Positions 18,200-36,597 of a stretch of 41,053 nt of DNA are shown piece by piece. The stretch is from a virus (lineage: Duplodnaviria; Heunggongvirae; Uroviricota; Caudoviricetes). The translations under genes and the position numbers were made by a program. Location: IMG/VR virus record IMGVR_UViG_2617270962_000012, positions 1 through 41,053 of that record; one strand, given 5' to 3'. Every line of letters begins with the position of its first letter. Position 1 is the stretch's first letter. A model generated the notes under the pieces. It made no database searches and was not told the DNA's origin. It saw nothing but the letters and a program-made list of their open reading frames with translations.

Positions 18200-18210
18200 C
18201 TGAGGTAATT

Positions 18211-18393
18211 ATGATCATGCTGATTCTCGCGCCTCTGGTGGGCGTGCTGGGGGCGCTTTTGCTGGCGTATGGTGCCTGGCTGATTTATCCCCCGGCGGGG
18301 TTTGTTGTTGCCGGGGCGTTGTGCCTGTTCTGGTCGTGGCTGGTGGCGCGATATCTCGACCGTACACAGTCGTCTGTCGGCGGAGGTAAATAG
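18211..18393 (+). CDS. small hydrophobic protein
   Basis: 60-aa ORF with two predicted TM helices between TerL and portal. Confidence 0.3.
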
Positions 18394-19634: not shown

Positions 19635-20262
19635 TGTACCGCTGAGTCTGAAATCTGTCAGTGACTCCGGTGAGTTTGAAGGGTATGGCTCCGTCTTTGG
19701 TGTAAAGGACAGCCACGATGATGTGGTGATGTCAGGGGCATTTGCCGCTTCCCTGCGGGCGTGGAGTGACAGAAAAGCGTTACCTGCGCTGCTCTGGCAG
19801 CACCGCATGGATGAACCCATCGGTGTTTACACCGAAATGAAGGAAGACGATGTCGGGCTTTACGTCAGGGGACGGTTGCTTATTGATGATGATCCCCTCG
19901 CAAAACGCGCACATGCACACATGAAGGCCGGTTCGTTAACCGGCCTTTCTATTGGGTACGTCCTGAAAGACTGGGAATACGACCGGACGAAAGAAGCCTT
20001 TCTGCTGAAAGAAATCGACCTCTGGGAAGTCAGTCTGGTGACGTTCCCGTCTAACGACGAGGCGCGGATCAGCGACGTCAAGAACGCGCTGGCCCGCGGG
20101 GAAATCCCCGAACAGAAAAAAATCGAAAGAGTCCTGCGTGATGTCGGACTCTCCCGTACCCAGGCCAAAGCATTCATGGCCGGGGGCTATGGCGCACTGT
20201 CCCTGCGCGACGCTGAGGATGTGAGCTCTGCACTGAATGCACTGAAAAATCTGAACTTCTAA
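19612..20262 (+). CDS. prohead protease (HK97-type)
   Basis: Internal ATG with SD 'aagga' 8 nt upstream; between portal and major capsid. Confidence 0.7.
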   Translation: MQTKQRLDVPLSLKSVSDSGEFEGYGSVFGVKDSHDDVVMSGAFAASLRAWSDRKALPALLWQHRMDEPIGVYTEMKEDDVGLYVRGRLLIDDDPLAKRAHAHMKAGSLTGLSIGYVLKDWEYDRTKEAFLLKEIDLWEVSLVTFPSNDEARISDVKNALARGEIPEQKKIERVLRDVGLSRTQAKAFMAGGYGALSLRDAEDVSSALNALKNLNF

Positions 20263-20276
20263 TCAGGAGAAATACG

Positions 20277-21482
20277 ATGGCGGTAGATATTAAAGATGTC
20301 GAACAGGTCGCGCAGGAGCTGCAGCAGAAGTTTGACGACTTCAAAGCAAAGAACGACAAGCGCGTGGATGCGATTGAGCAGGAAAAAGGCAAGCTTGCCG
20401 GGCAGGTGGAAACCCTGAACGGGAAACTCAGCGAGCTGGAAAATCTCAAAAGCGACCTTGAAAAAGAGCTGCTTGAGCTGAAACGTCCGGCAGGTGGAGC
20501 GCAAAATAAACTGGCCACCGAGCATAAAGAGGCGTTTGTGGGCTTCCTGCGTAAAGGCCGTGAAGACGGTCTGCGCGATCTGGAGCGTAAGGCATTGCAG
20601 GTGGGCACCGATGAAGACGGTGGCTACGCCGTGCCGGAAGAACTGGATCGCAACATTCTTAACCTGCTGAAAGATGAAGTGGTGATGCGTCAGGAAGCCA
20701 CGGTGATCACCGTTGGCGGCTCCGACTACAAAAAACTGGTGAATCTGGGCGGTACGGCTTCCGGATGGGTTGGCGAGACTGACGCGCGATCCCAGACTGC
20801 CACCTCCAGACTGGAGCTGATTGAACCTCTCATGGGGGAAATCTACGGCAACCCGCAGGCTACCCAGAAAATGCTGGACGATGCCTTCTTCAACGTGGAG
20901 GCATGGATCAACAGCGAGCTGGCAACCGAATTTGCCGAACAGGAAGAAATTGCCTTTACCTCAGGCGATGGCACCAAGAAGCCGAAAGGGTTCCTGGCGT
21001 ATGAATCCACTGATGAAACCGACAAGGTCCGGGCGTTCGGCAAACTTCAGCATATTGTATCCGGCGAAGCGACCGCGGTGACCGCAGACGCCATTATCAA
21101 ACTGATTTACACGCTGCGTAAGGCACACCGCACTGGCGCGAAGTTCATGATGAACAACAACAGCCTGTTTGCCATCCGTCTGCTTAAAGACAGCGAGGGT
21201 AACTATCTGTGGCGTCCAGGGCTGGAACTGGGGCAGCCGTCCTCTCTGGCGGGTTACGGTATCGCTGAAAACGAACAGATGCCGGATATCGCCGCTGATG
21301 CGAAAGCCATTGCATTTGGTAACTTCAAACGGGGTTACACCATCGTTGACCGTATCGGCACCCGCATTCTGCGTGACCCGTACACCAATAAACCGTTTGT
21401 CGGTTTTTATACCACCAAGCGCACCGGCGGGATGCTGGTCGATTCGCAGGCCATCAAACTGCTGAAGATTGCAGCGGCGTAA
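20277..21482 (+). CDS. major capsid protein (HK97 fold)
   Basis: 401 aa; N-terminal coiled-coil delta-domain-like region then capsid body; followed by strong terminator. Confidence 0.85.
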   Translation: MAVDIKDVEQVAQELQQKFDDFKAKNDKRVDAIEQEKGKLAGQVETLNGKLSELENLKSDLEKELLELKRPAGGAQNKLATEHKEAFVGFLRKGREDGLRDLERKALQVGTDEDGGYAVPEELDRNILNLLKDEVVMRQEATVITVGGSDYKKLVNLGGTASGWVGETDARSQTATSRLELIEPLMGEIYGNPQATQKMLDDAFFNVEAWINSELATEFAEQEEIAFTSGDGTKKPKGFLAYESTDETDKVRAFGKLQHIVSGEATAVTADAIIKLIYTLRKAHRTGAKFMMNNNSLFAIRLLKDSEGNYLWRPGLELGQPSSLAGYGIAENEQMPDIAADAKAIAFGNFKRGYTIVDRIGTRILRDPYTNKPFVGFYTTKRTGGMLVDSQAIKLLKIAAA

Positions 21483-21489
21483 TCATTCA

Positions 21490-21517
21490 GGGGCGCGGAA
21501 CCGCGCCCCCTGTTTTG
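21490..21517 (+). terminator. rho-independent terminator after major capsid gene
   Basis: 'gggcgcgg aa ccgcgccc' hairpin followed by T-run. Confidence 0.6.
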
Positions 21518-21531
21518 ACGGGTGAAGAATC

Positions 21532-21732
21532 ATGATACTGAAACAAGATCTGAAATGGTCACCGGACGGTATGCGTGTTGAGGTCATTCGGGCCGGTGAG
21601 TATGACGACGGGGCGCTTCCTGCCCGGGTGCAGGAGATTGCACTTCAGGCCGGGTTAGCAGAGCGCGGAATCAGTGCAAAAAGCAGTAAAGCGGCAAAAG
21701 AGAAAAAAGCCACGACCAGTAAAGAGGGCTGA
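21532..21732 (+). CDS. hypothetical small protein
   Basis: 66-aa ORF between capsid and connector genes. Confidence 0.3.
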   Translation: MILKQDLKWSPDGMRVEVIRAGEYDDGALPARVQEIALQAGLAERGISAKSSKAAKEKKATTSKEG

Positions 21733-21734
21733 GT

Positions 21735-22058
21735 ATGCTTCTGACAATGGAAGAGATTAAAGCCCAACTCCGGCTGGATGAGGATTTCGATGCTGATGAC
21801 CGCCATCTGCAACTGCTGGCCTGTGCGGCACAAAAGCGGACGGAAACGTATCTGAACCGGAAGCTCTATGCACCGGATAAAACCATTCCGGACAGCGATC
21901 CGGACGGGCTGCACCTGCCGGATGATATTCGTCTGGGGATGCTGATGCTTATCAGCCATTTTTACGAAAACCGCTCGTCGGTTACGGAAGTGGAGAAACT
22001 CGACATGCCGCAGAGTTTTGGCTGGCTTGTCGGCCCGTACAGGTACTTTCCGCAATGA
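21735..22058 (+). CDS. head-tail connector (gp6-like)
   Basis: 107 aa; position and size typical of HK97-type gp6. Confidence 0.55.
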   Translation: MLLTMEEIKAQLRLDEDFDADDRHLQLLACAAQKRTETYLNRKLYAPDKTIPDSDPDGLHLPDDIRLGMLMLISHFYENRSSVTEVEKLDMPQSFGWLVGPYRYFPQ

Positions 22059-22465
22059 AAATTCGTCAGGCGCAGACCAGCGCAACCTACATTCTGCCTG
22101 ACCCAGGCGAGCTGAATAAACGCGTCCTGATCCGCCAGCGGGTGGATATGCCTGCGGATAACTTTGGCGTGGAGCCTCAATACCCGGTTGCGTTCCGGGC
22201 ATGGGCGAAGGTTGTCCAGACCAGTGCCACCACCTGGCAGGAAACTGCGCAGACCGGGGACGCCATCACCCATTACATCACCATTCGTTACCGCCGGGGG
22301 ATCACCGCTGATTATGAGGTGGTCTGCGGTGACAGTGTGTACCGGGTGAAACGTCAGCGCGATCTGAACGGGGCGCGGCGCTTTCTGCTGCTGGAGTGTA
22401 CGGAGCTGGGCGAATGTAGGCAGAGTCACGGAGGCAGCAATGGCGACTCCCTTTTTTCACGTTGA
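22055..22465 (+). CDS. head-tail adaptor / head closure protein
   Basis: Overlapping start; conserved module position. Confidence 0.5.
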   Translation: MKIRQAQTSATYILPDPGELNKRVLIRQRVDMPADNFGVEPQYPVAFRAWAKVVQTSATTWQETAQTGDAITHYITIRYRRGITADYEVVCGDSVYRVKRQRDLNGARRFLLLECTELGECRQSHGGSNGDSLFSR

Positions 22466-22946
22466 TGTTCAGCAGCCCGCCGAGATGCGCTTTAACCGCG
22501 CCCGTGTCCGGCGGGCGTTTGTCACGATTGGGCAGCGTCATATGCGTGATGCCCGTCGGCTGGTGATGCGCCGTGCGCGGTCGGCACCGGGTGAAAACCC
22601 CGGTTATCAGACCGGACGCCTGGCTCGTTCGATTGGTTATATGGTGCCGAGAGCCAGTAAAAAGCGAGCCGGTTTTATGACACGCATTGCCCCTAACCAG
22701 CGCAACGGGAAGGGGAACCGGATGATCTCTGGTGACTTCTATCCGGCGTTTCTGTTTTTTGGTGTCCGGGGAGGAGCAAAACGTCGTCGTAGTCATCATC
22801 GTGGTGCATCCGGTGGCAGCGGCTGGCGACTGGCTCCACGTAATAACTTCATGGTGGAAACTCTTGAAAAGAACCGCAGCTGGACACGCTATTTTCTGGC
22901 GCGGGAATTGCGTAAATCACTGAAGCCGGAGCGACGACACAGATGA
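22440..22946 (+). CDS. HK97 gp10-like tail component
   Basis: 168-aa ORF in the head-tail joining module. Confidence 0.45.
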   Translation: MATPFFHVDVQQPAEMRFNRARVRRAFVTIGQRHMRDARRLVMRRARSAPGENPGYQTGRLARSIGYMVPRASKKRAGFMTRIAPNQRNGKGNRMISGDFYPAFLFFGVRGGAKRRRSHHRGASGGSGWRLAPRNNFMVETLEKNRSWTRYFLARELRKSLKPERRHR

Positions 22947-23503
22947 AACTGACGCCTGTTATTGCTGCACTGCGTGCCCGCTGTCCGTATTTTGAAAACC
23001 GGGTTGCAGGCGCGGCCCAGTTCAAAAATCTGCCGGAGGTCGGAAAGCTGAAGCTCCCGGCGGCATATGTGGTACCGGGTGATGACTCTCCGGGAGAAAA
23101 CAAAAGCCAGACCGACTACTGGCAGGAGCTGAAAGAGGGCTTCTCCGTGGTTGTCATACTGAGTAACGGGCGTGATGAGCGCGGTCAGTTTGCCTCGTAT
23201 GATGTGGTGGACGATGTCCGGCAGATGCTCTTTAAGGCTCTGCTGGGCTGGAACCCGGAAGCGTGCGGTAACCCGATTACCTATGACGGCGGTACGCTGC
23301 TGGATCTGAATCGTCATGAGCTGATTTATCAGTTCGATTTTTCGGTCATCAGCGAGCTGACTGAAGACGATACCCGCCAGCAGGATGACCTGAACAGTCT
23401 GGATGAACTGCGAACGCTGGCGATTGATGTTGATTATCTCGATCCCGGTAACGGGCCTGACGGCGATATCGAACATCACACCGAAATAACCCTTCCTTCC
23501 TGA
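22943..23503 (+). CDS. tail terminator / tail-associated protein
   Basis: 186-aa ORF immediately upstream of the sheath module. Confidence 0.45.
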   Translation: MKLTPVIAALRARCPYFENRVAGAAQFKNLPEVGKLKLPAAYVVPGDDSPGENKSQTDYWQELKEGFSVVVILSNGRDERGQFASYDVVDDVRQMLFKALLGWNPEACGNPITYDGGTLLDLNRHELIYQFDFSVISELTEDDTRQQDDLNSLDELRTLAIDVDYLDPGNGPDGDIEHHTEITLPS

Positions 23504-23511
23504 GAATCATC

Positions 23512-23682
23512 ATGTTTGTGAAACCTGTTAAAGGGCGGTCAGTGCCTGACCCTGCCCGCGGCGACCTTTTGCCCGCCGAAGGGCGAAATGTTGACGAGAA
23601 CAACTACTGGCTGCGCCGTGAAGCAGCGGGTGATATCCGGCGCGTGAATAAAAAGGTGAATACCGATGACGATAAGCTTTAA
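23512..23682 (+). CDS. small protein upstream of the sheath gene (not in ORF track, under 60 aa)
   Basis: 56-aa ORF 'MFVKPVKGRSVPDPARGDLLPAEGRNVDENNYWLRREAAGDIRRVNKKVNTDDDKL'; overlaps sheath start; conserved position in Mu-like tail clusters. Confidence 0.4.
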   Translation: MFVKPVKGRSVPDPARGDLLPAEGRNVDENNYWLRREAAGDIRRVNKKVNTDDDKL

Positions 23683-25162
23683 CACCATTCCGTCGAATAC
23701 GCTGGTTCCGTTGTTTTATGCGGAAATGGATAACCAGGCGGCGAATACTGCACAGGACAGCGGAGCATCGCTGCTGATTGGTCATGCCAATAACGGTGCA
23801 GAGATTGTTGCCAACAGTCTGGTACTGATGCCGTCGGCAGACTATGCACGCCAGATTTGTGGTGCGGGAAGTCAGCTGGCGCGTATGGTCGAGGCTTATC
23901 GCCAGACTGACCCGTTTGGCGAGCTGTATGTGATTGCCGTTCCTGAATCCACAGGCGCGGCGGCAACAGTTACGCTGACGGTGACCGGGGCAGCAACCGA
24001 AACCGGCACGGTGAATGTTTATGTGGGACGTACCCGCGTGCAGGCACCGGTGACCAACGGCGATAACGTCGCGACGATTGCCAGCAGTATCAAAGATGCC
24101 ATCAATGCCGTTCCGGCCCTGCCGTTTACGGCCTCATCTTCGGCTGGTGTGGTTACACTGACCGCTCGCCATAAGGGGCTTTGCGGGAATGAAATTCCTG
24201 TCAGCCTCAATTACTACGGCTTCGGTGGGGGCGAAGTGCTGCCAGCGGGCGTACAGATTGCCGTGGTGACGGGGAACGCCGGAACGGGCGCTCCTGTTCT
24301 CACCGGCGCGGTGGCTGCAATGGCGGATGAGCCGTTTGATTATATCGGCCTGCCGTTCAACGACACGGCCTCCGTTAACACGCTGGTGACCGAGATGAAC
24401 GATACCAGCGGTCGCTGGAGCTATGCGCGTCAGCTGTATGGTCATGTGTATACGGCAAAGATCGGCACGCTGTCAGAACTGGTGACCGCAGGTGACCAGT
24501 TTAACCAGCAGCACATTACCCTGGCGGGGTACGAAAAAGACACCCAGACGCCTGCCGACGAGCTGGCGGCAAGCCGTACCGCCCGCGCAGCGGTGTTTAT
24601 CCGCAACGATCCGGCACGTCCCACGCAGACCGGTGAGCTGGTGGGTATGCTGCCTGCGCCGAAGGGGAAACGGTTCACGATGACCGAGCAGCAGACCCTG
24701 CTGTCTCATGGCGTGGCAACGGCGTATGTCGAAAGCGGGGTGCTGCGCATTCAGCGTGATGTCACCACGTACAGGAAAAATGCTTACGGGGTTGCGGATA
24801 ACAGCTACCTCGACAGCGAGACGCTGCATACCAGTGCGTATGTACTGCGCAAACTGAAATCCGTCATTACCAGTAAGTACGGGCGTCACAAGCTTGCCAG
24901 CGACGGTACCCGCTTTGGTCCCGGTCAGGCGATTGTCACCCCGGCGGTAATCAAAGGGGAACTGCTGGCAACCTACCGTCAGCTTGAGCGTGCGGGGATC
25001 GTGGAAAACTACGAACTGTTTAAGCAGTACCTGGTTGTGGAGCGTGATGCCAGCGATCCGAACCGCCTGAACACGCTGTTCCCGCCTGACTATGTTAACC
25101 AGTTGCGTGTTTTTGCCGTGGTTAACCAGTTCCGTCTTCAGTATTCAGAGGAGTCTGCATAA
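23666..25162 (+). CDS. contractile tail sheath protein (Mu L-like)
   Basis: 498 aa; followed by tube, chaperone and tape-measure genes. Confidence 0.8.
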   Translation: MTISFNTIPSNTLVPLFYAEMDNQAANTAQDSGASLLIGHANNGAEIVANSLVLMPSADYARQICGAGSQLARMVEAYRQTDPFGELYVIAVPESTGAAATVTLTVTGAATETGTVNVYVGRTRVQAPVTNGDNVATIASSIKDAINAVPALPFTASSSAGVVTLTARHKGLCGNEIPVSLNYYGFGGGEVLPAGVQIAVVTGNAGTGAPVLTGAVAAMADEPFDYIGLPFNDTASVNTLVTEMNDTSGRWSYARQLYGHVYTAKIGTLSELVTAGDQFNQQHITLAGYEKDTQTPADELAASRTARAAVFIRNDPARPTQTGELVGMLPAPKGKRFTMTEQQTLLSHGVATAYVESGVLRIQRDVTTYRKNAYGVADNSYLDSETLHTSAYVLRKLKSVITSKYGRHKLASDGTRFGPGQAIVTPAVIKGELLATYRQLERAGIVENYELFKQYLVVERDASDPNRLNTLFPPDYVNQLRVFAVVNQFRLQYSEESA

Positions 25163-25518
25163 TGGCCCGTATCGGGGGAACCTGTTATTTCAAAATTGAC
25201 GGTCAGCAGCTATCGCTGACCGGCGGCATTGAGGTGCCCATGAACAGGACGGTCAATGATGACATCATCGGCCTGGACGGTTCAGTGGACCGCAAGGAAA
25301 CTCACCGTGCGCCTTATGTCAAAGGGACCTTCAAGGTGCCGAAGAATTTTCCGGTGAGCAAAATCACCTCGTCTGATGAGATGACCATCACTGCCGAGCT
25401 GGCGAACGGTCAGGTCTATGTATTGTCGTCCGCCTGGCTGCACGGAGAAGCGAACCATAATGCCGAAGAAGGCACGGTTGATCTTGAGTTCCACGGTGAA
25501 GAAGGGGATTACCAGTAA
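25162..25518 (+). CDS. tail tube protein
   Basis: 118 aa directly downstream of sheath. Confidence 0.7.
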   Translation: MARIGGTCYFKIDGQQLSLTGGIEVPMNRTVNDDIIGLDGSVDRKETHRAPYVKGTFKVPKNFPVSKITSSDEMTITAELANGQVYVLSSAWLHGEANHNAEEGTVDLEFHGEEGDYQ

Positions 25519-25787
25519 TGAAAGAGCTTGAGTTAAAGAAACCGATTATCGCTCATGGTGAGACACTCTCCGTACTGGAGTTTGATGAACCCACCGGGAA
25601 GGATGTCCGCGAGCTGGGGTATCCCTACCAGATGAATCAGGATGAGTCCGTCAGACTTCTGGCGCATGTGGTGTCGAAATACATTGTGCGGCTGGCGAAA
25701 GTGCCGCAAAGCTCTGTCGACCAGATGTCTCCGGCAGACCTGAATGCAGCGGCGTGGCTTGTGGCTGGTTTTTTCCTCCAGGCCTGA
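25518..25787 (+). CDS. tail assembly chaperone (short product); -1 frameshift-extended form ends at 25936
   Basis: Pair of overlapping ORFs (25518-25787 frame 0; 25754-25936 frame -1) upstream of tape measure. Confidence 0.6.
   Translation: MKELELKKPIIAHGETLSVLEFDEPTGKDVRELGYPYQMNQDESVRLLAHVVSKYIVRLAKVPQSSVDQMSPADLNAAAWLVAGFFLQA
25769..25775 (+). promoter_or_regulatory. programmed -1 ribosomal frameshift slippery heptamer
   Basis: 'T TTT TTC' in the zero frame, 10 nt before the zero-frame stop. Confidence 0.55.
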
Positions 25788-25928
25788 CGGCTGAATACCT
25801 CACTGATCGCTTCTTTGACTGCGCCAGCTACTGGCGCATTAATCCCTTCGAATTGCTGAATATGCCGATCAGTGAAATTCCCTTGCTGGTCAGTCAGGCA
25901 AACAGGATAGAGCAGGAGAAACGCACAC

Positions 25929-27761
25929 ATGGCTGAATTTGAGCTTAAGGCGTTGATCACCGGTGTCGACAGGCTTTCTCCCGCGCTGTCGAAAATGCAA
26001 AAGAAAATCCGGGGATTTAAACGCCAGGCGGAAGAAGCGTCACAGGGTGGGCTGGCGCTTGGTGGCGGACTGGCAGCGGGTCTGACGCTTTCCCTGAAAT
26101 CTTATGCTGATCAGGAAAACGCCGCCACCGGGCTGAAAGTCGCCATGATGGATGCGAACGGCGAGGTTGGAAAGAGCTTTCAGGACATCAATAAACTGGC
26201 TATTGGCCTGGGTAACCAGCTACCCGGTACAACGGCTGATTTCCAGAACATGATGCAGATGCTGGTGCGTCAGGGGATCCCGGCAGAAAACATTCTTGGT
26301 GGTGTGGGTAAAGCGACAGCTTATCTTGCGGTACAACTGAAAAAAACACCGGAAGCGGCTGCTGAGTTTGCCGCAAAGATGCAGGATGCTACCGGAACGG
26401 CCTCAGAAGACATGATGGGGCTGTTCGACACAATTCAGAAGGCGTTTTATCTGGGCGTGGACGATACCAACATGCTGTCATTCTTCACTAAAACCAGCTC
26501 TGTTCTGAAGATGGTGAATAAGGACGGTCTTCAGGCTGCACAGAGTCTTGCCCCCATCAGTGTCATGATGGATCAGATGGGGATGAACGGGGAGTCGGCA
26601 GGTAATGCCCTGCGAAAAGTTATCCAGTCCGGATTAAGCGTTAAGAAAATCAGGGACGTCAATAAAATCATGGCCCGCCAGAAACTCGGGGTACAGCTCG
26701 ATTTTACTGATGGCAAAGGGAGTTTTGGCGGTCTTGATAACATGTTCAGGCAACTGGCAAAGCTGCGAAAACTGACCGACGTTAAGCGAACCGGTGTACT
26801 TAAGGCAATATTTGGTGATGATGCCGAAACCCTTCAGGTGGTCAATGCACTAATCGATAAAGGAAAGGATGGCTACGATCAGATCCAGCAGAAGATGAAT
26901 AAACAGGCCAGCCTGAATAAACGTGTTCAGGCTCAGCTTGGTACGCTGTCCAACCTGTGGGAGGCAATGACGGGGACCGCAACTAACGGCCTTGCGGCTA
27001 TTGGCGGCGCATTTTCTGGTGACGCTAAGAACATCACGCAGTGGCTGGGGGAGTTGGGGGAGAAATTCACGAAGTTTGCGGATGAAAATCCCCGGGTTAT
27101 TCGCGGCGTCGTCGGGCTTGCTGCCGGTCTTGCGATTCTGAAACTGGGATTGATGGGCGTGGGCAGTGCCATCAGCATTGTCAGCAGGATCATGTCGATG
27201 ACGCCGATTGGCATGATTGCGACGGCGATAGCCCTGGCTGCGGGATTAATTATCACTAACTGGGATGTTGTCGGACCTTATTTCAAGAAGCTCTGGGAAA
27301 CCATTGGTCCTTATTTTGAGGCTGGCTGGGAACTCCTTAAGAAAGTTTTTGCCTGGTCGCCGCTGGGGATGGTGATCAATAACTGGGGACCGGTTGTTAA
27401 GTGGTTTCAGGATATGTGGGATAAGCTGAAGCCGATTATTGAATGGTTTACCGACAGTTCCGGTGACACGGTCGATACCATTAACTCGGCGCAGTGGGGC
27501 GCGGGTGCTTATGATGCTTATGGGACGGGAATACCGGCACGGGGATACACGCCTTATCCGGCGGTGGATCCGGCTCAGGCAAACAACGCCTCCGATGCCA
27601 CAGGCTCGAATCCCTTCATGATTAATAAAGCTACCGCGCCAAAAGTTGATGGTGAGATCAAGGTATCATTTATAAATATGCCACCAGGTATGCGGGTTAC
27701 GGAAACACGCTCCAGTGGCATTGATATAAATCACGATGTTGGCTATACCCGATTTTGGTAG
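25929..27761 (+). CDS. tail tape measure protein
   Basis: 610 aa; helical N-terminal part and hydrophobic Gly/Ala-rich segments; downstream of chaperone. Confidence 0.8.
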   Translation: MAEFELKALITGVDRLSPALSKMQKKIRGFKRQAEEASQGGLALGGGLAAGLTLSLKSYADQENAATGLKVAMMDANGEVGKSFQDINKLAIGLGNQLPGTTADFQNMMQMLVRQGIPAENILGGVGKATAYLAVQLKKTPEAAAEFAAKMQDATGTASEDMMGLFDTIQKAFYLGVDDTNMLSFFTKTSSVLKMVNKDGLQAAQSLAPISVMMDQMGMNGESAGNALRKVIQSGLSVKKIRDVNKIMARQKLGVQLDFTDGKGSFGGLDNMFRQLAKLRKLTDVKRTGVLKAIFGDDAETLQVVNALIDKGKDGYDQIQQKMNKQASLNKRVQAQLGTLSNLWEAMTGTATNGLAAIGGAFSGDAKNITQWLGELGEKFTKFADENPRVIRGVVGLAAGLAILKLGLMGVGSAISIVSRIMSMTPIGMIATAIALAAGLIITNWDVVGPYFKKLWETIGPYFEAGWELLKKVFAWSPLGMVINNWGPVVKWFQDMWDKLKPIIEWFTDSSGDTVDTINSAQWGAGAYDAYGTGIPARGYTPYPAVDPAQANNASDATGSNPFMINKATAPKVDGEIKVSFINMPPGMRVTETRSSGIDINHDVGYTRFW

Positions 27762-27852
27762 CCAGGATTCCCCTCACATGTATTGCTGGTTGTAAGTCAT
27801 AAATAGAGTGATAGAATTAATGCACATTTAGAAAAATGTTAATAGGCGAAAA

Positions 27853-28383
27853 ATGAAAGGCTATATCACAGCAAGTGTAATTCTTGGAGCAGCGGCTATT
27901 TTTTCATCTCTCATAATCTCTGGCAACATCTCCTTTAAAGATGAACATATTATTCAGTTATCTGGAGGAGCCATAAAACTTGGTGATGTTTATAAAGAAA
28001 ATAAATTGATAAGTGCAAAGATTATTTTTCCAGATAATCAGGGTGAACAGATTCTTGTTGTCGACGGCAATCCTGAAAACTTTAAGGAGGATTTTCAGGA
28101 GAAATTAAATAAAGTAATAAAAACTTTAAATGCGTCAAAGAAAAAAGATGAAGAGAAAGTTAGCCTGGATAATTTAAGTGTTATTGAAGAGTCTAAACTA
28201 GAGCTCGTTTCTGCGGTGCGTTACTCTGCTCAGTATGTTCCTATGTTTACTCTGACGCTGGACAAAAAAGAAATTACCATGCCTAAAAATACGGTAATAT
28301 TTCCATTTGCCAGCGATGAAACAGCTAAGTATTTAAATGAACAACAGCAAAAGTATAAAGATTCGTTGTTTCTGACTCGCTAA
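27853..28383 (+). CDS. AT-rich moron: secreted or membrane-anchored protein of unknown function
   Basis: 176 aa; N-terminal signal/anchor; Lys/Glu-rich; own promoter-like upstream region and terminator downstream. Confidence 0.45.
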   Translation: MKGYITASVILGAAAIFSSLIISGNISFKDEHIIQLSGGAIKLGDVYKENKLISAKIIFPDNQGEQILVVDGNPENFKEDFQEKLNKVIKTLNASKKKDEEKVSLDNLSVIEESKLELVSAVRYSAQYVPMFTLTLDKKEITMPKNTVIFPFASDETAKYLNEQQQKYKDSLFLTR

Positions 28384-28402
28384 TTAATAAAATTCATTAC
28401 AA

Positions 28403-28434
28403 GGCCACCTTCTAATAGGTGGCTTTTTTATTTT
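28403..28434 (+). terminator. rho-independent terminator after the moron
   Basis: 'ggccacct tctaat aggtggc' followed by 'ttttttatttt'. Confidence 0.6.
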
Positions 28435-28444
28435 CGGAGTGTAT

Positions 28445-29773
28445 ATGACGTGGAAAGACAGGCTTCAGGATGCGTCATTTCGAGGTGTGCCGTTTAAGGT
28501 TGAAGAAGAAAGTGCGGGAACCGGCCGTCGTGTGGAAACACACGAATATCCGAACCGCGACAAACCCTATACCGAAGATCTGGGAAAAGTCACTTTCCGC
28601 CCGTCCATCACGGCTTATGTGGTGGGAGATGACTGCTTTGACCAGCGCGATCGCCTGATTGACGCGCTGAATAAACCCGGTCCCGGCACGCTTGTCCACC
28701 CGACATACGGTGAGCTGAAAGTCTGTGTTGACGGGGAAGTTCGGGTCAGCACATCGAAGAGTGAAGGGCGTATTGTCCGCTTTGACCTGAAGTTTGTCGA
28801 AGCGGGAGATCTCTCTTACCCCACATCAGGCGTGGCGACGGCGCAGACGCTGATGTCATCCTGTTCTGCACTGGATGACTGCATCAGTGACAGCTTCAGC
28901 GGTTTCAGTATCGATGGCGTGGCGGATTTTGTGCAGAACGACGTTATCGGTAATGCCAGCACAATGCTTGGGTATGTTTCTGATGCGATGAAAGTGGTGG
29001 ATTCTGCCGTATCGGATGCCGCCAGGCTGTTGCAGGGGGATATCTCGGTACTTCTGCCGCCACCATCGTCAGGCAAAAATTTCGTTGAGCAGGTGCAGAA
29101 AATGTGGCGTACCGGGAAACGCCTTTATGGTAACGCCAGCGACCTGGTCACCATGATCAAAACGCTTTCCGGTGTCAGCCTCGGCAGCGATCTGCAACCG
29201 CGCGGCGTCTGGAAAACGGACAGTAAAACCACCGCCACGGCGACGCAGCAGCGTAATGTGGTTGCCAGCACTCTTCGTACGACCGCAATCAGCGAAGCGG
29301 CGTATGCCGTCACCCGATTGCCTGCGCCAACAACTTCCGCGGTGATGCAGAATGCCACAGTGGGGCAGTCAACAACACCCGCGCAGAGCACCGGCTGGCC
29401 TTCTGTCACGCATCCGGCACTGAACAATGCACCGGCGGTGAAAAACACGGTTGACCTGCCAACGTGGGAAGAACTGACCGACATTCGCGACACACTGAAT
29501 ACGGCAATTGATAAGGAGTTGTCCCGTACAACCAGTGATGCGCTGTTTCTGGCGCTGCGCCGGGTGAAAGCAGATCTGAATGCGGATATCAACACGCGCC
29601 TTGAACAGTCTGCACGGATCATTCAGCGCACGCCGGATGAGGTTTTACCCGCGCTGGTGCTGGCGGCGACCTGGTTTGATAACGCGGCGCGTGACGCGGA
29701 CATTATCCGGCGTAATGCCATTACGCATCCCGGCTTTGTGCCGGTGATCCCTCTGAAGGTGCCAGTGCAATGA
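28445..29773 (+). CDS. DNA circulation protein (Mu N-like)
   Basis: ATG with SD 'ggag' 7 nt upstream; position after tape measure in a Mu-like tail module. Confidence 0.6.
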   Translation: MTWKDRLQDASFRGVPFKVEEESAGTGRRVETHEYPNRDKPYTEDLGKVTFRPSITAYVVGDDCFDQRDRLIDALNKPGPGTLVHPTYGELKVCVDGEVRVSTSKSEGRIVRFDLKFVEAGDLSYPTSGVATAQTLMSSCSALDDCISDSFSGFSIDGVADFVQNDVIGNASTMLGYVSDAMKVVDSAVSDAARLLQGDISVLLPPPSSGKNFVEQVQKMWRTGKRLYGNASDLVTMIKTLSGVSLGSDLQPRGVWKTDSKTTATATQQRNVVASTLRTTAISEAAYAVTRLPAPTTSAVMQNATVGQSTTPAQSTGWPSVTHPALNNAPAVKNTVDLPTWEELTDIRDTLNTAIDKELSRTTSDALFLALRRVKADLNADINTRLEQSARIIQRTPDEVLPALVLAATWFDNAARDADIIRRNAITHPGFVPVIPLKVPVQ

Positions 29774-30849
29774 ATGACAATGTCACGCTACGGGTAAATG
29801 GCCGGGAGTGGAATGGCTGGACATCGGTGCGCATCGGTGCCGGTGTTGAACGACTGGCGCGGGATTTCAGTGTGGAGATCACCCGCCAGTGGCCGGGAGA
29901 TGAGGGTATTACCACGCTTCAGCCGCGCATTAAAAACGGTTCAAAAGTGGAAGTGCTGATTGGTGATGAGCTGGTGATCACCGGCTGGGTGGAGGCGACG
30001 CCCGTTCGTTACGATGCCCGTTCGGTCAGCACCGGTATTGCCGGACGTAGTCTGACCGCTGATCTGATTGACTGTGCAGCCGAACCGACACAGTTTAACG
30101 GACGATCGCTGGTACAGATTGCGCAGGCGCTTGCTGCGCCTTTCGGCATTGAGGTGGTGAACAGCGGTGCGCCGTCGGGTGTTATTCCTGATGTCCAGCC
30201 TGATCACGGTGAAACGGTGATTGAGGTGATCAACAAAATACTCGGTCAGCAGCAGGCGCTGGCTTACGATGACCCGCACGGCAGGCTGGTGATTGGCGGT
30301 ATTGGCTCAACGCGGGCACATACCGCGCTGGTACTCGGGGAAAACATCCTTTCCTGCGATACGGAGAAGAGTATCCGGGAGCGGTTTTCTGTTTACCAGG
30401 TGGCGGGGCAGCGTGCCGGAAACGATGATGATTTCGGTGAGGCCACCACCACCGCGCTGCGGGCCCGCACAGAGGACGCATTTATTGCCCGTTACCGTCC
30501 GATGTATATCAGGCAGACAGGGCAGGCTACGGGGGCAGGCTGTATTGCGCGTGCTGACTTTGAAGCCCGGCAACGGGCGGCGCGGACGGATGAAACCACC
30601 TATGTGGTGCAGGGCTGGCGACAGGGTAACGGTACGCTGTGGCAGCCCAACCAGCGGGTGATTGTCTTCGATCCGGTATGTGGTTTCGATAATACCGAAC
30701 TGCTTGTTTCGGAAGTCACGTTTACTCAGGACCAGAACGGCACCCTGACGGAAATCCGTGTCGGCCCACCTGATGCTTATCTGCCTGAACCCGAAGCCCC
30801 CGGCGCGCGGAAAAAGAAAAAAGCCAGAGTACAGGAGGACCCGTTCTGA
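29770..30849 (+). CDS. baseplate hub / tail protein (Mu P-like)
   Basis: 359 aa; conserved order. Confidence 0.6.
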   Translation: MNDNVTLRVNGREWNGWTSVRIGAGVERLARDFSVEITRQWPGDEGITTLQPRIKNGSKVEVLIGDELVITGWVEATPVRYDARSVSTGIAGRSLTADLIDCAAEPTQFNGRSLVQIAQALAAPFGIEVVNSGAPSGVIPDVQPDHGETVIEVINKILGQQQALAYDDPHGRLVIGGIGSTRAHTALVLGENILSCDTEKSIRERFSVYQVAGQRAGNDDDFGEATTTALRARTEDAFIARYRPMYIRQTGQATGAGCIARADFEARQRAARTDETTYVVQGWRQGNGTLWQPNQRVIVFDPVCGFDNTELLVSEVTFTQDQNGTLTEIRVGPPDAYLPEPEAPGARKKKKARVQEDPF

Positions 30850-31397
30850 TGAGGACGATTGAAGCCATGCAGCGACAACTCCTCGGCCTGATTGGGCGGG
30901 CAGTGGTGAAAAGCATCAGTGCCGCCACGAAATGTCAGACCGTGGATGTGTCCCTGATTGCCGGTGAACCTAAAGCCGGGGTTGAACATCTTGAACCCTA
31001 CGGTTTTACCGCAAGGGCAAACAGCGGTGCGGAAGCAGTGGTGTTGTTTCCGGATGGTGACCGTTCTCATGCGGTGGTTGTTACGGTGTCGGACCGGCGC
31101 TACCGCCTGAAAGGGCTGCAGACGGGTGAGGTGGCTGTCTATGACGATCAGGGGCAGTCCGTGACGCTGACCAGGGAGGGGATCGTGGTGGACGGTGCAG
31201 GTAAAACGATCACGTTTCGCAATTCACCTAAAGCACGTTTTGAAATGGACCTGGAAGTGACAGGACAGGTGAAAGACCTGTGCGACTCCAGCGGCACCAC
31301 CATGTCAGCGATGCGGCTTGCCTATAACGGGCATCGTCACAGAGAGAACGGTCAGGGCAGTAACACCGACAAACCTGATAAAGCGATGGAGGCATGA
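30849..31397 (+). CDS. baseplate spike / assembly protein V (Mu gp45-like)
   Basis: 182 aa; conserved order. Confidence 0.6.
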   Translation: MRTIEAMQRQLLGLIGRAVVKSISAATKCQTVDVSLIAGEPKAGVEHLEPYGFTARANSGAEAVVLFPDGDRSHAVVVTVSDRRYRLKGLQTGEVAVYDDQGQSVTLTREGIVVDGAGKTITFRNSPKARFEMDLEVTGQVKDLCDSSGTTMSAMRLAYNGHRHRENGQGSNTDKPDKAMEA

Positions 31398-31822
31398 TGG
31401 AACTGTGGCTGACGGTGAACGGTAAACGCACCTGCGCCAGCGCACCGCTGGATCCGCTGACCCGCGCTGTGGTGATTTCCCTGTTCACCTGGCGGCGGGC
31501 GGAGCCTGATGACAACGCCGACGTCCCGATGGGATGGTGGGGGGATACCTGGCCTGCGGTACAGAATGACCGTTACGGCTCCCGACTGTGGCTGCTTCAG
31601 CGCAGCAAACTGACCAATCAGCTGGTGCAGACGGTAAGGGGGTATATCCGCGAATGCCTGCAATGGATGATTGATGACGGCGTGGTGTCCCGTATTGATC
31701 TGGATATCCGCCGCACCGGGATTAATGAGCTGGGTAACAGTATCACTCTCTGGCGTCGTGACGGACCGGTAATGATTTCTTTTGATGATCTGTGGAGTGC
31801 GATAACGCATGGCGGACAGTGA
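31394..31822 (+). CDS. baseplate protein (Mu gp46-like)
   Basis: 142 aa; overlaps neighbours. Confidence 0.55.
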   Translation: MMELWLTVNGKRTCASAPLDPLTRAVVISLFTWRRAEPDDNADVPMGWWGDTWPAVQNDRYGSRLWLLQRSKLTNQLVQTVRGYIRECLQWMIDDGVVSRIDLDIRRTGINELGNSITLWRRDGPVMISFDDLWSAITHGGQ

Positions 31823-32867
31823 ATTTCAGCGCCCGACGCTGGCAGAAAATATCAGTATGCTCCGTAACGATTTATTCGCCAGGCTGGACGTCAGCGACAC
31901 GCTCCGGCGCATGGATGAAGACGTGCGGGCAAAGGTGTATGCGGCGGCGCTGCATACGGTTTACGGGTACATCGATTATCTGGCAATGAATATGCTGCCT
32001 GACCTGTGCGATGAGTCCTGGCTGGCGCGACATGCTGCGATGAAACGGTGTCCGCGCAAGGGGGCCACGGCTGCCAGCGGGTATGTGCGCTGGGAAGGTG
32101 TCAGCGATGGCCTGAAGGTGACCGCCGGGAGTGTTATTCAGCGCGATGACCTGGTTCAGTACACGGCAACTGCCGATGCAACCAGCTCCGGTGGTGTCCT
32201 GCGTGTGCCGATCACTTGCTCAACTACAGGCGCGGTCGGTAACGCTGACGACGGTACGGCATTAATCCTGGTCACGCCGGTGAATGGTCTGCCGTCTTCC
32301 GGTGTTGCAGATACCCTGACTGGCGGATTCGATACTGAAGATCTGGAAACGTGGCGCGCCCGCGTCATTGAGCGGTATTACTGGACGCCGCAGGGCGGGG
32401 CTGACGGGGACTATGTCGTCTGGGCTAAAGAAGTGCCCGGCATTACCCGCGCATGGACATACCGTCACTGGATGGGAACGGGAACTGTCGGTGTGATGAT
32501 TGCCGGCAGTGACCTGATTAATCCCATTCCGGAAGAATCAACGGAAACGGCGGCAAGACAACATATCGGGCCACTGGCCCCGGTGGCAGGCTCTGATTTG
32601 TATGTGTTCAGGCCGGTGGCACATACGGTGGATTTTCATATCCGCGTGACGCCGGACACACCGGAAATACGGGCTGCCATCACCGCCGAGTTGCGTTCGT
32701 TCCTGCTGCGTGATGGTTATCCGCAGGGAGAACTGAAGGTGTCACGTATCAGTGAAGCGATTTCCGGTGCGAACGGGGAATACAGCCATCAGTTGCTTGC
32801 ACCGGCGGACAATATCTCCATTGCAAAAAATGAACTGGCGGTTCTGGGGACGATTTCATGGACGTGA
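31809..32867 (+). CDS. baseplate J-like protein (Mu gp47-like)
   Basis: 352 aa; conserved order. Confidence 0.7.
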
Positions 32868-33442
32868 CAAACGATGATTACATCCGTCTGTTGTCGGCAC
32901 TGCTGCCGCCCGGTCCGGCGTGGTCAGCCAGCGATCCGGCGATTGCTGGTGCGGCACCGTCATTAACCCGCGTTCATCAGCGTGCGGATGCCCTGATGCG
33001 GGAGCTGGATCCGCGCACCACCACTGAACTGATAAACCGCTGGGAGCGTCTGTGCGGTCTGCCGGATGAATGTATTCCCGCAGGGACACAGACCCTTCGC
33101 CAGCGTCAGCAACGGCTGGATGCGAAGGTTAATCTGGCTGGCGGCATCAATGAGGATTTTTATCTTGCACAGCTTGCTGCCCTGGGCAGACCAGACGCCA
33201 CTATCACGCGATACGATAAAAGCACGTTCACCTGCTCATCGGCCTGTACTGACGCGGTGAATGCGCCGGAATGGCGGTATTACTGGCATGTCAACATGCC
33301 AGCCGCCACCAACACCACCTGGATGACATGTGGCGATCCCTGTGATTCCGCACTGCGTATCTGGGGCGACACCGTTGTCGAGTGTGTGCTTAACAAACTC
33401 TGCCCGTCGCATACCTACGTAATTTTTAAATATCCGGAGTAA
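32858..33442 (+). CDS. tail protein (Mu gp48-like)
   Basis: 194 aa; Cys-rich C-terminus; between J-like and tail fiber genes. Confidence 0.55.
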
Positions 33443-33445
33443 TCC

Positions 33446-34507
33446 ATGCATCGTATAGACACAAAAACCGCGCAGAAGGATAAGTTCGGCGCGGGTAAGA
33501 ACGGTTTTACCCGTGGTAACCCCCAGACCGGCACGCCAGCCACCGATCTGGATGATGACTACTTTGACATGTTGCAGGAGGAGCTTTGCAGCGTGGTGGA
33601 GGCATCCGGTGCCAGCCTGGAGAAGGGGCGGCATGACCAGCTGCTTACCGCGCTTTGTGCGCTGCTGTTAAGTCGTAAAAATCCGTTTGGCGATATCAAA
33701 TCGGATGGCACTGTGCAAACGGCTCTCGAAAACCTGCAATTGAGAGAATCATTTTCTGGCGTTGTTGGGCAATCGCGAAATGCCAGAATGTCAGTGGCTG
33801 CCGCGAGTGTTACAGCGACATTTTCAGCCGATGAGTTGATTGTTGAAGATGGTGATGGACGCCAGTATCGATTGAGTAATTTCAATAAATCTGTAGATCT
33901 GATGAATACTGGGGCTGGTGGTATGGATACGGGGACAGTGCCGGAAACAGGATTTGTTGCTTTGTATGCGATTTATAATCCGACTACTTATATGTCGTCA
34001 TTGCTTGCGGTAAACGCAACCACCGCTGGATTGCCAGAGATTTATGGTGGTTCGGCATTACCTCATGGCTATACTGCCAGCGCACTGGTAAGTGTTTGGG
34101 GTATTTCAAAATCAAAATTCAAAACTGGAATGCAACATGGGCGGGTAATTAACACTGACCGTCAGATAGCAATAACAACAACCGCAAAAATAAACAATCT
34201 AACTGAGTTATCTATTGCCTCGATTGTTCCAAAAAATGCAAGAAAAGTGAGCGGCTATGGTTCTATCTATGCAACATCAGGTGATGAGAAATCGGGCGGT
34301 TTAATTATAGATGTCGCATCCACCAGTAGTGGTGTTGGACGCGTATCAATCGGTGGGTATGTTGGGAATTATGGTATAGGGGTTTATGGTCAGTTTACAG
34401 AATTATTGCTATCAACCCCGCAATCAATTTTTTATGACGTGAATCCAGACGGCACATCAATCACGGAGTTTTCTGCATCATTATTTATCAGTGGGTATAC
34501 GATATGA
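33446..34507 (+). CDS. tail fiber protein
   Basis: Conserved N-terminal anchor '[47 protein letters not shown]'; AT-rich, Gly/Ser-rich variable C-terminus. Confidence 0.7.
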
Positions 34508-34668
34508 TTTATGCCGAATTAACACCAGATGAAAAGTCAATTGTTGCATTGTTCTCATGTGAGCAAGAAAATACTACGCAGATTCATAAAAATGATGTGC
34601 GCTATATTGAGTTTTATAACCTACAACCAAAGTTCATTCAGAAGCTACTGCCTACACCGGCGGTATAA
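34504..34668 (+). CDS. small ORF translationally coupled to tail fiber (possible fiber chaperone)
   Basis: 54-aa ORF starting in an ATGA overlap with the fiber stop; not in ORF track (under 60 aa). Confidence 0.3.
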
Positions 34669-34973
34669 GGAACATGCCAATGATTGACTTGTTTCCCGGA
34701 GGCGTAGCCCTGGCTGGATTTGATGTATCAACGCGCATCAGCAGATATTGAATAGCACGATATGCTTGTATAGGGAATTCTATCAGATATAATTGATGAG
34801 ACTGAACTGTGACACACAAAACGTTGCACTGGAATGTAATGCTTTGAATGCTTCTATGTTGAGGATGTAACGTGGTTTGAACTATTTACAGTATATATGA
34901 TTATTCTACATATTGATGTCGATATGTATGAATGTTTTTATAAGTGAAGTGCATGCGAATAATTCGCAATATG

Positions 34974-35006
34974 ATTAGAGTCAATGTAATGGTTATTGAC
35001 TCTAAT
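34974..35006. terminator. perfect 12-bp inverted repeat hairpin between convergent fiber-side and acyltransferase genes
   Basis: 'attagagtcaat' - 9 nt - 'attgactctaat', followed by T-rich sequence on the plus strand. Confidence 0.4.
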
Positions 35007-35026
35007 TTATTACAAAATAACTTTAT

Positions 35027-36094
35027 TTAATGAAATTTAGTTCGGATGAATTGTTGCGATGGTTTTTCAATGAGTATATATGACATATAGCTAATTGCTA
35101 TTAATGTAAGCATGAACAAAATGAATACATTGGGTCTGTAAAAAATATCGCGTCCATAGCCAATCTTGTCAGCTAAATAAACAACAATGATTTGCAAAGG
35201 AAAATGTAAAAGATAAGATGAATAACTGATATCACCCAACCATTCAATTTTCTTCCCAAAATCGTTTCGTATTGCGCTAATTGATACAAGGAAAAAGATT
35301 ATGGAGGTAAATCCGAATAAGATAATTGAGAATATATCTGCTACTTGCAGGGTAAAGATAACTCCCCATGAGATCAATAGAAAAACACAAGCAAAAATAA
35401 AAAATAACTTTGCGCTAATATTTTTTATGGCCGCAATCGTAATTTTATAAGTTAGACCACCAATAAAGAAAGAGAATGCGCCGATCATTATGGGATTGTT
35501 AATTTTGAAAAAGTAGTACGACAATGCAACTATTAAAATTGATATGAATGTTGTTTTTGATGTGAACTTGCATAATATAAAAAATATCATGTACATAAGT
35601 ACTTCAATCGACACGGACCATGTCGGGGCGTTGAAGGACCAACCTCGCTCAAATCCCCATGATTGAATCATCAATAAATTCAGAATGGCATGGTAAATGT
35701 CATTCATAGGATAAACAAAAAAATAATTATGACTTTTAAAGAAAATAATTTGTAATATTGCCACGACAGCAAATGTAAATATATAAAGTGGATATAATCT
35801 ACTGACACGGTTAACTATAAAAGTTTTTGCTGAGGTTTTATTGCTGTGTATATTGTCAGCGTATAGATAAAAAAATATGAATCCAGAAATCATAAAAAAC
35901 AATTCGACAGCATATAAACCGTAATGATAAAAGACGGAAAAAAATTCATAAAAAGGTTGGCGGTTTATGATTATGTCAGATGCAGCATTCTTTTTCATAA
36001 AAAAATGTTGCCAATGCCATAACACAACGGAAAGTGCGGCAAATCCTCTCAGAACATCCAGGGTATATATTCTCTTCCCAAAAACATTCGTCAC
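35027..36094 (-). CDS. acyltransferase family 3 integral membrane protein (O-antigen acetylase-like)
   Basis: 355 aa, about ten hydrophobic segments, N-terminal 'LDVLRGFAALSVVLWH' typical of acyltransferase-3; very AT-rich. Confidence 0.75.
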   Translation of the reverse strand: MTNVFGKRIYTLDVLRGFAALSVVLWHWQHFFMKKNAASDIIINRQPFYEFFSVFYHYGLYAVELFFMISGFIFFYLYADNIHSNKTSAKTFIVNRVSRLYPLYIFTFAVVAILQIIFFKSHNYFFVYPMNDIYHAILNLLMIQSWGFERGWSFNAPTWSVSIEVLMYMIFFILCKFTSKTTFISILIVALSYYFFKINNPIMIGAFSFFIGGLTYKITIAAIKNISAKLFFIFACVFLLISWGVIFTLQVADIFSIILFGFTSIIFFLVSISAIRNDFGKKIEWLGDISYSSYLLHFPLQIIVVYLADKIGYGRDIFYRPNVFILFMLTLIAISYMSYILIEKPSQQFIRTKFH

Positions 36095-36597
36095 AACGAA
36101 CCTCTTTTAATAAAGTCAAGTGATAATGAAAGATAAATATTGTAAACGAAAAAGCACTGGACTGGAACATATATCTCTGCCTATAATTTAACTAGGATAA
36201 TTTTACTAACGCAGTCATAATTCGTTCATGTATACCAGATGAAAGTACATGTTCTATGAAATAGGGTTTTGCCTGGAGTTTGAAGGTTTTTAACGATTAT
36301 ACCTGTTTAATCGACTCCCCATGTTTTTTGACATTATCCACCGCACACGATACTGGATGCCAGGCAAACTGATTTGCTGGCATAAAGTCACTGAGAATTT
36401 TTTACCAACAATATCTTGCCACATCTTTTCCCGCACAGTTTCGGCAATAGAATCAGCGGGCAGCGGTCATCAATATTCACCAGACATTGATCTGCCGCAC
36501 TATCTGACCGGTGTCCTGCTGAGAATACTAATTTCTTTTTTTGCAAGTGCTGTCCAATCATGATTGGGGGGGTGCCCCTATTAAGTTGTCAAGCATG

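Follow-up and report, generated by a model that had tools for sequence, protein, structure and literature searches.

Positions 27762-28420 of the window, as we call the whole 41,053-nucleotide stretch of viral DNA analysed here, form a discrete AT-rich cassette of ~660 bp that carries a single ORF and lies within the tail operon of an SfV-like E. coli prophage. The cassette is a compositionally foreign, optional insert with sharp boundaries, and in sister prophages it is replaced either by nothing or by unrelated single-gene cargos. We hypothesize, with a probability of roughly 45%, that it is a moron expressed on its own in the lysogen, and that its product faces the periplasm and blocks the entry of incoming phages. 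As it stands, the cassette is a well-documented, ordinary moron with an uncharacterised product.

By its gene content, the window is a mosaic prophage of E. coli that belongs with SfV, SfI and SfII and combines lambdoid early genes with an HK97-type head and a Mu-type contractile tail. It encodes an S24 repressor, a Q antiterminator, a DNA methylase, a holin, an HNH endonuclease and the head and tail modules (Table 1). The tail is followed by an acyltransferase-3 gene and an IS110-family transposase, which lie between the tail-fibre region and the integrase, and the prophage abuts the dus gene. The acyltransferase-3 gene is possibly a cargo for O-antigen acetylation or seroconversion. The DNA methylase gene, between those for the Q antiterminator and the holin, occupies another classical moron position, and a gene for a YafO-family toxin lies close to the window's left end. 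Around the cassette, 2.2 kb (27000-29200) are 100% identical to several E. coli chromosomes, and these chromosomes align to the window only at 15499-33735, with 98.8% identity (L001, L032); the early, lysis and tail-fibre/cargo regions (1-15498 and 33736-41053) differ from theirs.

Table 1. Features of the window discussed in the text, and alternative cargos found at the same junction in other genomes.
Feature	Position	Strand	Basis or occurrence
Tail tape measure protein gene, left flank of the slot	25929..27761	+	Pfam PhageMin_Tail, 1.3e-26; RefSeq annotation of identical DNA; breakpoints
Cassette-specific upstream non-coding region	27762..27852	+	Read from the sequence; at least 99% identity, with the ORF, in 174 genomes
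Cargo ORF, 176 aa	27853..28383	+	PHROG 5485 member (function unknown)
Intrinsic terminator	28401..28436	+	10-bp stem 28401-28426, then T-run
DNA circulation/baseplate hub gene, right flank of the slot	28445..29773	+	Pfam DNA_circ_N, 4.2e-34; RefSeq start codon
Q-type antiterminator, same prophage	10469..11263	+	Pfam Antiterm PF03589, 1.2e-53
YafO-family toxin gene	557..1015	+	
DNA methylase gene	11858..12910	+	
Acyltransferase-3 gene	35027..36094	-	Acyl_transf_3
IS110-family transposase gene	36598..37794	-	
Integrase gene	38453..39550	-	
Dihydrouridine synthase (dus) gene	39652..40677	+	
Alternative cargo: bPH_1 PH-domain protein, 125 aa	same slot		24-42 genomes
Alternative cargo: 164-aa protein with cleavable-looking signal peptide, phrog_8976	same slot		84 genomes and phage SKA5
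Alternative cargo: 225-aa lipoprotein, LLGGC lipobox, phrog_1353	same slot (L005)		54 genomes
Alternative cargo: OB-fold (tRNA_anti-like) protein with N-terminal TM, PF12869	same slot	reverse	~58 genomes

The foreign composition of the cassette is evident from 200-nt windows, in which GC is 0.30-0.36 across 27800-28400 vs 0.50-0.58 on both flanks, and the same contrast between cargo and flanks is repeated in six homologous loci. Comparison with six junction variants places the left breakpoint at 27755-27761, at the very end of the tape-measure coding sequence, and the right breakpoint at 28418-28442, within or just past the 3' arm of the terminator. The initial annotation, made from the letters of the sequence, had delimited the element as 27762-28434, which nearly coincides with these homology breakpoints. 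Its description of an AT-rich moron inside the tail operon is borne out by the foreign GC content, the sharp breakpoints and the empty junction of sister phages, and the Pfam assignments of the flanks agree with the position that it gave between tape measure and DNA circulation genes. The ORF begins with ATG and is preceded by an SD-like AGG triplet at 27844-27846; its 176-aa product is Lys/Glu-rich, as described (K 11.9%, E 8.0%).

Of 5426 complete E. coli genomes, 1096 contain the tape-measure/hub junction, and in only 173 of these does the match cover the insert. Searched on its own, the 673-bp cassette is present in 179 E. coli genomes, 174 of them with the full length and nearly all at 99% identity or more; its locations comprise several chromosomal sites and 4 plasmid records, and ~3% of complete E. 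coli genomes carry it. Among 40 evenly spaced E. coli matches, the junction is empty in 19, the two tail genes lying 60 nt apart. It is also empty in SfV, SfI, SfII and E. coli IHE3034, and the two tail genes are adjacent in SfIV too. The comparison of related prophages that had been proposed as a check therefore gives a clear presence/absence pattern, with ~174 genomes bearing the cassette, about half of the sample empty, and other genomes holding one of at least four unrelated alternative cargos.

Alternative cargos were delineated in E. coli prophages and phage SKA5 (L002, L003, L004, L005, L007 and L025). Export or anchor signals, namely a signal peptide, an LLGGC lipobox and an N-terminal TM, are present in three of the four, and in four of the five cargo types when the 176-aa protein is included. 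None of the alternative cargos matches PADLOC; the OB-fold cargo matches phrog_8545, annotated 'superinfection exclusion Sie-like', at 3e-41. Pairwise hhalign comparisons among the cargos, the 176-aa protein included, gave probabilities of at most 1.4%; the cargos of the slot are therefore mutually unrelated, and remote homology linking the alternative ones is ruled out. Our literature search found no description of the tape-measure/hub junction as a cargo slot or hotspot, and the moron reported in the SfIV paper is a different one, downstream of Q.

According to the Juhala/Hendrix definition, a moron is recognized by extra DNA, deviant composition, its own promoter, its own terminator and expression in the prophage (PMC3594210). 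Three of the four sequence criteria are found here: the cassette is extra DNA between genes that are adjacent in related phages, its composition is unlike that of its neighbours, and it has its own downstream terminator, although the empty junction has a terminator too. With the genome comparisons above, its classification as a classical moron is solid.

The terminator deserves closer consideration. The cassette hairpin, a 10-bp stem followed by a T-run, has a folding energy of -15.6 kcal/mol (z = -5.8), a stability that 0 of 200 shuffles reach. Its stem is specific to the cassette, but homology to the backbone restarts at ~28418-28424, so that the T-run and the ribosome-binding site of the hub gene belong to the backbone. 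The empty junction has a hairpin and T-run as well, GTCCCACTCCGGTGGGATTTTTT (-14.8 kcal/mol, z = -4.3), which the SfII record marks as a putative terminator, and every plus-strand cargo in the slot is closed by its own hairpin and T-run. The empty-junction hairpins lie inside the late tail operon, at L006:1066-1125 in E. coli IHE3034 and L024:1278-1316 in phage SfII. The terminator is therefore a backbone feature of the slot, whether or not it holds a cargo, and it is ruled out as proof of cassette autonomy. Thus, the strong terminator that the initial annotation placed at 28403-28434 is real, but the autonomy read from it does not follow, because an equivalent hairpin exists without the insert. 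In lambdoid phages, late transcription antiterminated by Q passes terminators. Late transcription driven by the Q-type antiterminator of this prophage would likewise read through the junction terminator, which would then halt only transcripts that are not antiterminated, an arrangement compatible with moron logic.

Evidence for a dedicated promoter is ambiguous. A sigma-70-like site at 27790-27817 consists of TTGTAA (27790-27795), a 16-nt spacer and TAGAAT (27812-27817), with 9 of 12 matches to consensus and a TG preceding the -10 candidate (together 27809-27817). These are the hexamers that had been noted as promoter-like. However, a scan returned 5 such sites per 3 kb vs 3.6 +/- 1.7 in shuffled sequence, so that the match is at chance level, and homologues do not keep the site in the same position; in one of them, the upstream region is only 34 nt long. 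The sequence ACATTT-AGAA-AAATGT (27824-27839), a perfect inverted repeat, lies just 3' of the -10 candidate, where a transcript would be expected to begin, and may represent an operator or a weak hairpin in the 5'-UTR. Stand-alone relatives of the gene, with long intergenic flanks (~0.75-1.4 kb), must carry promoters of their own. AT-rich genes are typical targets of H-NS in E. coli, and expression of the cassette in the lysogen could therefore be low.

The 176-aa protein has no Cys and no lipobox. Its residues 5-23 are hydrophobic (Kyte-Doolittle over 19 residues, 2.11) and there is no second hydrophobic segment, a pattern kept throughout the family (median KD19 2.23). Across the family, the flank preceding this segment has a net charge of about +1 and the flank following it one of about -0.7; the counts of positive charges are similar on the two sides (1.1 vs 1.3), so that the predicted topology derives from net charge only. 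A single N-terminal hydrophobic segment, a positive n-region and no other TM, as expected of a Sec-exported or signal-anchored protein, are all present. A conserved small residue (S23/G24) fits the -1 rule, and the h-region, at ~18-19 residues, is long for a cleaved signal. One homologue bears the source name 'Secreted protein'. An AlphaFold (AF2) model built on a 66-sequence alignment has a pLDDT of 90.6 and comprises a TM/signal helix (3-23), strands (32-72), a helix (74-93), a hairpin (114-143) and a second helix (149-171); the protein is thus predicted to consist of one N-terminal helix and a compact alpha/beta domain. The signal or anchor segment claimed at the N-terminus is supported by the hydrophobic stretch, the modelled helix and the family-wide pattern, and we infer that this helix acts as a Sec signal-anchor or cleaved signal peptide and that the C-terminal domain lies in the periplasm.

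Searches for a function were largely uninformative. The protein matches PHROG 5485 at 3.8e-108 and a second PHROG, family 34391, both of unknown function. It has no match in Pfam, NCBIfam or PADLOC (0 matches) or among Sie-annotated PHROGs, and a PDB sequence profile search returned nothing (best E 0.52). A Pfam scan of the 66 aligned family members gave scattered chance matches only, and a PHROG 'endonuclease' match with an E of 0.014 was likewise dismissed as chance. Carriers of the cassette include ETEC H10407, in which the gene is ETEC_RS01640, and strain B27; a literature search for WP_000679479 and ETEC_RS01640 yielded nothing relevant. dN/dS between two Leclercia-type alleles is 0.078, which indicates a functional gene under purifying selection.

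A word-indexed search found only the E. coli copies and relatives at ~52-59% (Leclercia, Lelliottia and metagenomic assemblies), a genome scan with close alignment found only 2 loci, with a Citrobacter copy at 59%, and 50,697 phage records, searched by tblastn with three family members as queries, gave no match. An exhaustive profile search recovered 79 family representatives (50% clustering) that align end to end, with named members from Edwardsiella, Mangrovibacter, Yersinia, Pectobacterium and Pantoea. Nearly all of the full-length members have ~166-203 aa, and members are free-standing; a few have N-terminal extensions and a few truncated variants exist. Fusion to tail structural genes, which would have spoken against an envelope-targeted lysogen protein, occurs in none of the family members. 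In these searches, the family appears small, uncharacterised, so far confined to Enterobacterales, and without a match among solved structures.

Relatives at 30-58% identity occupy the same tape measure/DNA_circ junction in Leclercia, Lelliottia, Edwardsiella, Mangrovibacter and two metagenomic prophages, in one of which the tail proteins are only ~25% identical to those of the window. All of these same-junction homologues are AT-richer than their flanks, and with a single exception a hairpin terminator lies downstream of them. Another relative lies amid further small non-structural genes in the tail module of a different kind of myovirus, and Yersinia relatives lie beside anti-repressor-like and tail genes. 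The Pectobacterium and Pantoea relatives (24-31% identity) stand alone between non-coding flanks of ~0.75-1.4 kb. For example, one in a Pantoea-type prophage (L030:4476-5063) lies between the holin and RecT regions, with intergenic flanks of ~1.4 kb and 0.8 kb, and one on the Pectobacterium versatile chromosome (L029:5001-5519) has genes for an IS transposase and a glycosyltransferase as neighbours, and the surrounding region examined contains no phage genes. These stand-alone members indicate that the family is not confined to tail operons. From these positions, the family looks like a mobile cargo that strongly, though not exclusively, favours the tape-measure/hub slot.

At the shared junction, cargo identity tracks the identity of the tape-measure C-terminal 150 aa (r = 0.93) and of the hub (r = 0.84), but not that of the rest of the tape measure, its mosaic body (r = 0.49). 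These correlations are descriptive only and come from 15 non-independent pairs among six loci. Between L008 and L012, dS is 1.07 for the cargo (X) and 1.24 for the tail assembly chaperone, 3-5x the values for sheath, tube, hub and gpP (0.2-0.44), and the tape measures are only 40% identical, which suggests a separate recombination history for the chaperone/tape-measure/cargo block. The Leclercia/Lelliottia-type loci also have an extra block between the DNA_circ and gpP genes (L008:10013-11808 and equivalents in L009-L012), absent from the window, which encodes two proteins, one of 503-520 aa that matches phrog_5939 ('tail protein') and nothing in Pfam, and one of 94 aa.

Taken together, our hypothesis can be laid out as follows. 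In the lysogen, the gene would be transcribed from its own weak sigma-70 promoter, with transcription stopped at the hairpin terminator; during lytic growth, it would also be transcribed within the Q-antiterminated late operon. The N-terminal helix would export or anchor the product such that its C-terminal domain faces the periplasm, and at the inner membrane or in the periplasm the product may block tail penetration or DNA delivery by incoming phages, an exclusion of the HK97 gp15 or P22 SieA type. Expression in the lytic phase might also protect progeny. The exclusion role is plausible by analogy with HK97 gp15, P22 SieA, Tab and SNIPE, the latter two being known tape-measure-directed defences (PMC10884400 and PMC13190303, respectively), and from the cargo pattern of the slot, in which export or anchor signals predominate and one cargo has a 'Sie-like' PHROG match.

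A more far-reaching version of this hypothesis is that the junction of SfV-like Mu-type tails is a dedicated, exchangeable 'entry-exclusion slot'. The 176-aa family would then be an exclusion protein of a new type, facing the periplasm and having a fold unseen in solved structures. Its target, with which it would co-diversify, would be either the C-terminus of the tape measure or the hub, recognized while kin phages are entering through the periplasm. This version is suggested by the co-variation of cargo and tape-measure C-terminus (r = 0.93 over the 15 non-independent pairs) and by the persistence of the cargo at the junction even where tail proteins are only ~25% identical, but we regard it as speculative and unlikely in this full form.

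Alternatively, the product might be a factor of lysogenic conversion or host fitness that acts in the envelope, through envelope physiology, stress or host interaction, like lambda Bor/Iss or Lom. Bor/Iss and Lom are among the morons known from the tail regions of lambdoid phages (PMC3594210), iss is present in related prophages, the window holds another surface-modifying cargo in its acyltransferase-3 gene (Acyl_transf_3, 35027-36094), and the cassette occurs in E. coli of many hosts and pathotypes. However, the strain sources have no pathotype bias, and the protein has no similarity to Bor, Lom or any virulence family. It also lacks a lipobox, an outer-membrane beta-barrel signature and Cys, which makes surface exposure of the 176-aa protein unlikely. 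On balance, we consider this explanation improbable, with about one chance in five.

Comparable weight can be given to the possibility that the gene is a late-expressed accessory that serves the lytic growth of its own phage and stays silent in the lysogen. It might prevent the loss of progeny on lysing cells or debris, for which there is a precedent in progeny protection (bioRxiv 10.1101/2024.03.05.583538), modulate the periplasm at lysis or, like T4 Imm/Sp, exclude secondary infection only after induction. Consistent with this, the gene is co-oriented within a Q-dependent late operon, the promoter evidence is weak, with only 34 nt upstream in one homologue, and relatives down to 30% identity keep the tail-operon position even where structural proteins are ~25% identical. 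The tracking of the tape-measure C-terminus (r = 0.93, in the same descriptive sense) also speaks for it. On the other hand, the distant relatives with long non-coding flanks stand outside late operons, most sister phages do without the cassette, and its foreign AT-rich composition and own terminator stem are those of classical morons. We doubt this possibility, with about one chance in five, and retain the lysogen-expressed exclusion moron as the preferred reading.

A structural or assembly component of the tail, tied to the tape measure or the hub, is very improbable and effectively excluded, despite a position that is conserved across several genera. Since SfV, SfI and SfII are viable with an empty junction, the cassette gene is unnecessary for infectious virions, and this dispensability rules out a tail-structural role. 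A structural protein of a Mu-type tail should be required and universal in its tail module; instead, the gene is absent from these phages, from SfIV and from most E. coli prophages with the same tail, about half of those sampled having nothing at the junction, and it is replaced elsewhere by unrelated genes, including those for a cytoplasmic PH-domain protein and the reverse-strand OB-fold protein. Furthermore, family members occur outside tail modules, and an N-terminal membrane anchor is atypical of virion proteins. Finally, the notion of a non-functional ORF or decaying remnant in AT-rich junk DNA, to which the absence of an annotated function and the few truncated variants might point, is effectively refuted by the dN/dS of 0.078, the 79 diverged full-length representatives, the confident fold prediction (pLDDT 90.6) and the presence of the cassette at 99% identity or more in 179 genomes.

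If the proposed entry block is true, the 176-aa protein would represent a fairly widespread new family among the few characterised exclusion proteins of the E. coli inner membrane and periplasm. The slot belongs to a common prophage type and houses unrelated small cargos of at least five kinds, four of which bear export or anchor signals; it would then be a place to seek more. Both the entry block and the slot would bear on the host range of phages in therapy and on competition among prophages.

Among known systems, the hotspots of P2-like prophages and P4-like satellites resemble the slot in that a fixed inter-gene site holds alternative, unrelated cargos across strains (PMC9122126). However, the SfV-like slot lies inside a late tail operon, its cargos are single, small and mostly envelope-targeted, and none of them matches a known defence model. 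The small exported proteins Cor of HK022/N15/phi80, Llp of T5 and Ltp of TP-J34, which protect the lysogen or the infected cell (PMC3594210, PMC3952083), are likewise encoded within or beside the tail gene cluster. They are lipoproteins, whereas the 176-aa protein lacks a lipobox, Cys and any homology to them; a lipoprotein cargo does fill the tape-measure/hub slot in other E. coli prophages (L005).

The closest parallel in arrangement is HK97 gp15, the first described moron, an inner-membrane protein for which tail-dependent superinfection exclusion was experimentally shown (PMC3594210). Both are single-gene, compositionally distinct inserts in the tail operon beside the tape-measure gene, followed by a putative terminator and dispensable for the virion, and gp15 is inserted in the membrane as the N-terminal segment of the 176-aa protein is predicted to be. 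In contrast, gp15 has 62 aa and is encoded upstream of the tape measure, whereas the 176-aa protein is encoded downstream and has a folded extramembrane domain in the model. The two have no sequence relationship, and remote homology is ruled out by an hhalign probability of 0.2%. P22 SieA, a prophage-encoded membrane protein that acts at DNA delivery against kin phages (PMC10883804), is encoded elsewhere in its genome and is unrelated to the 176-aa protein, but it offers the functional model that we propose for it.
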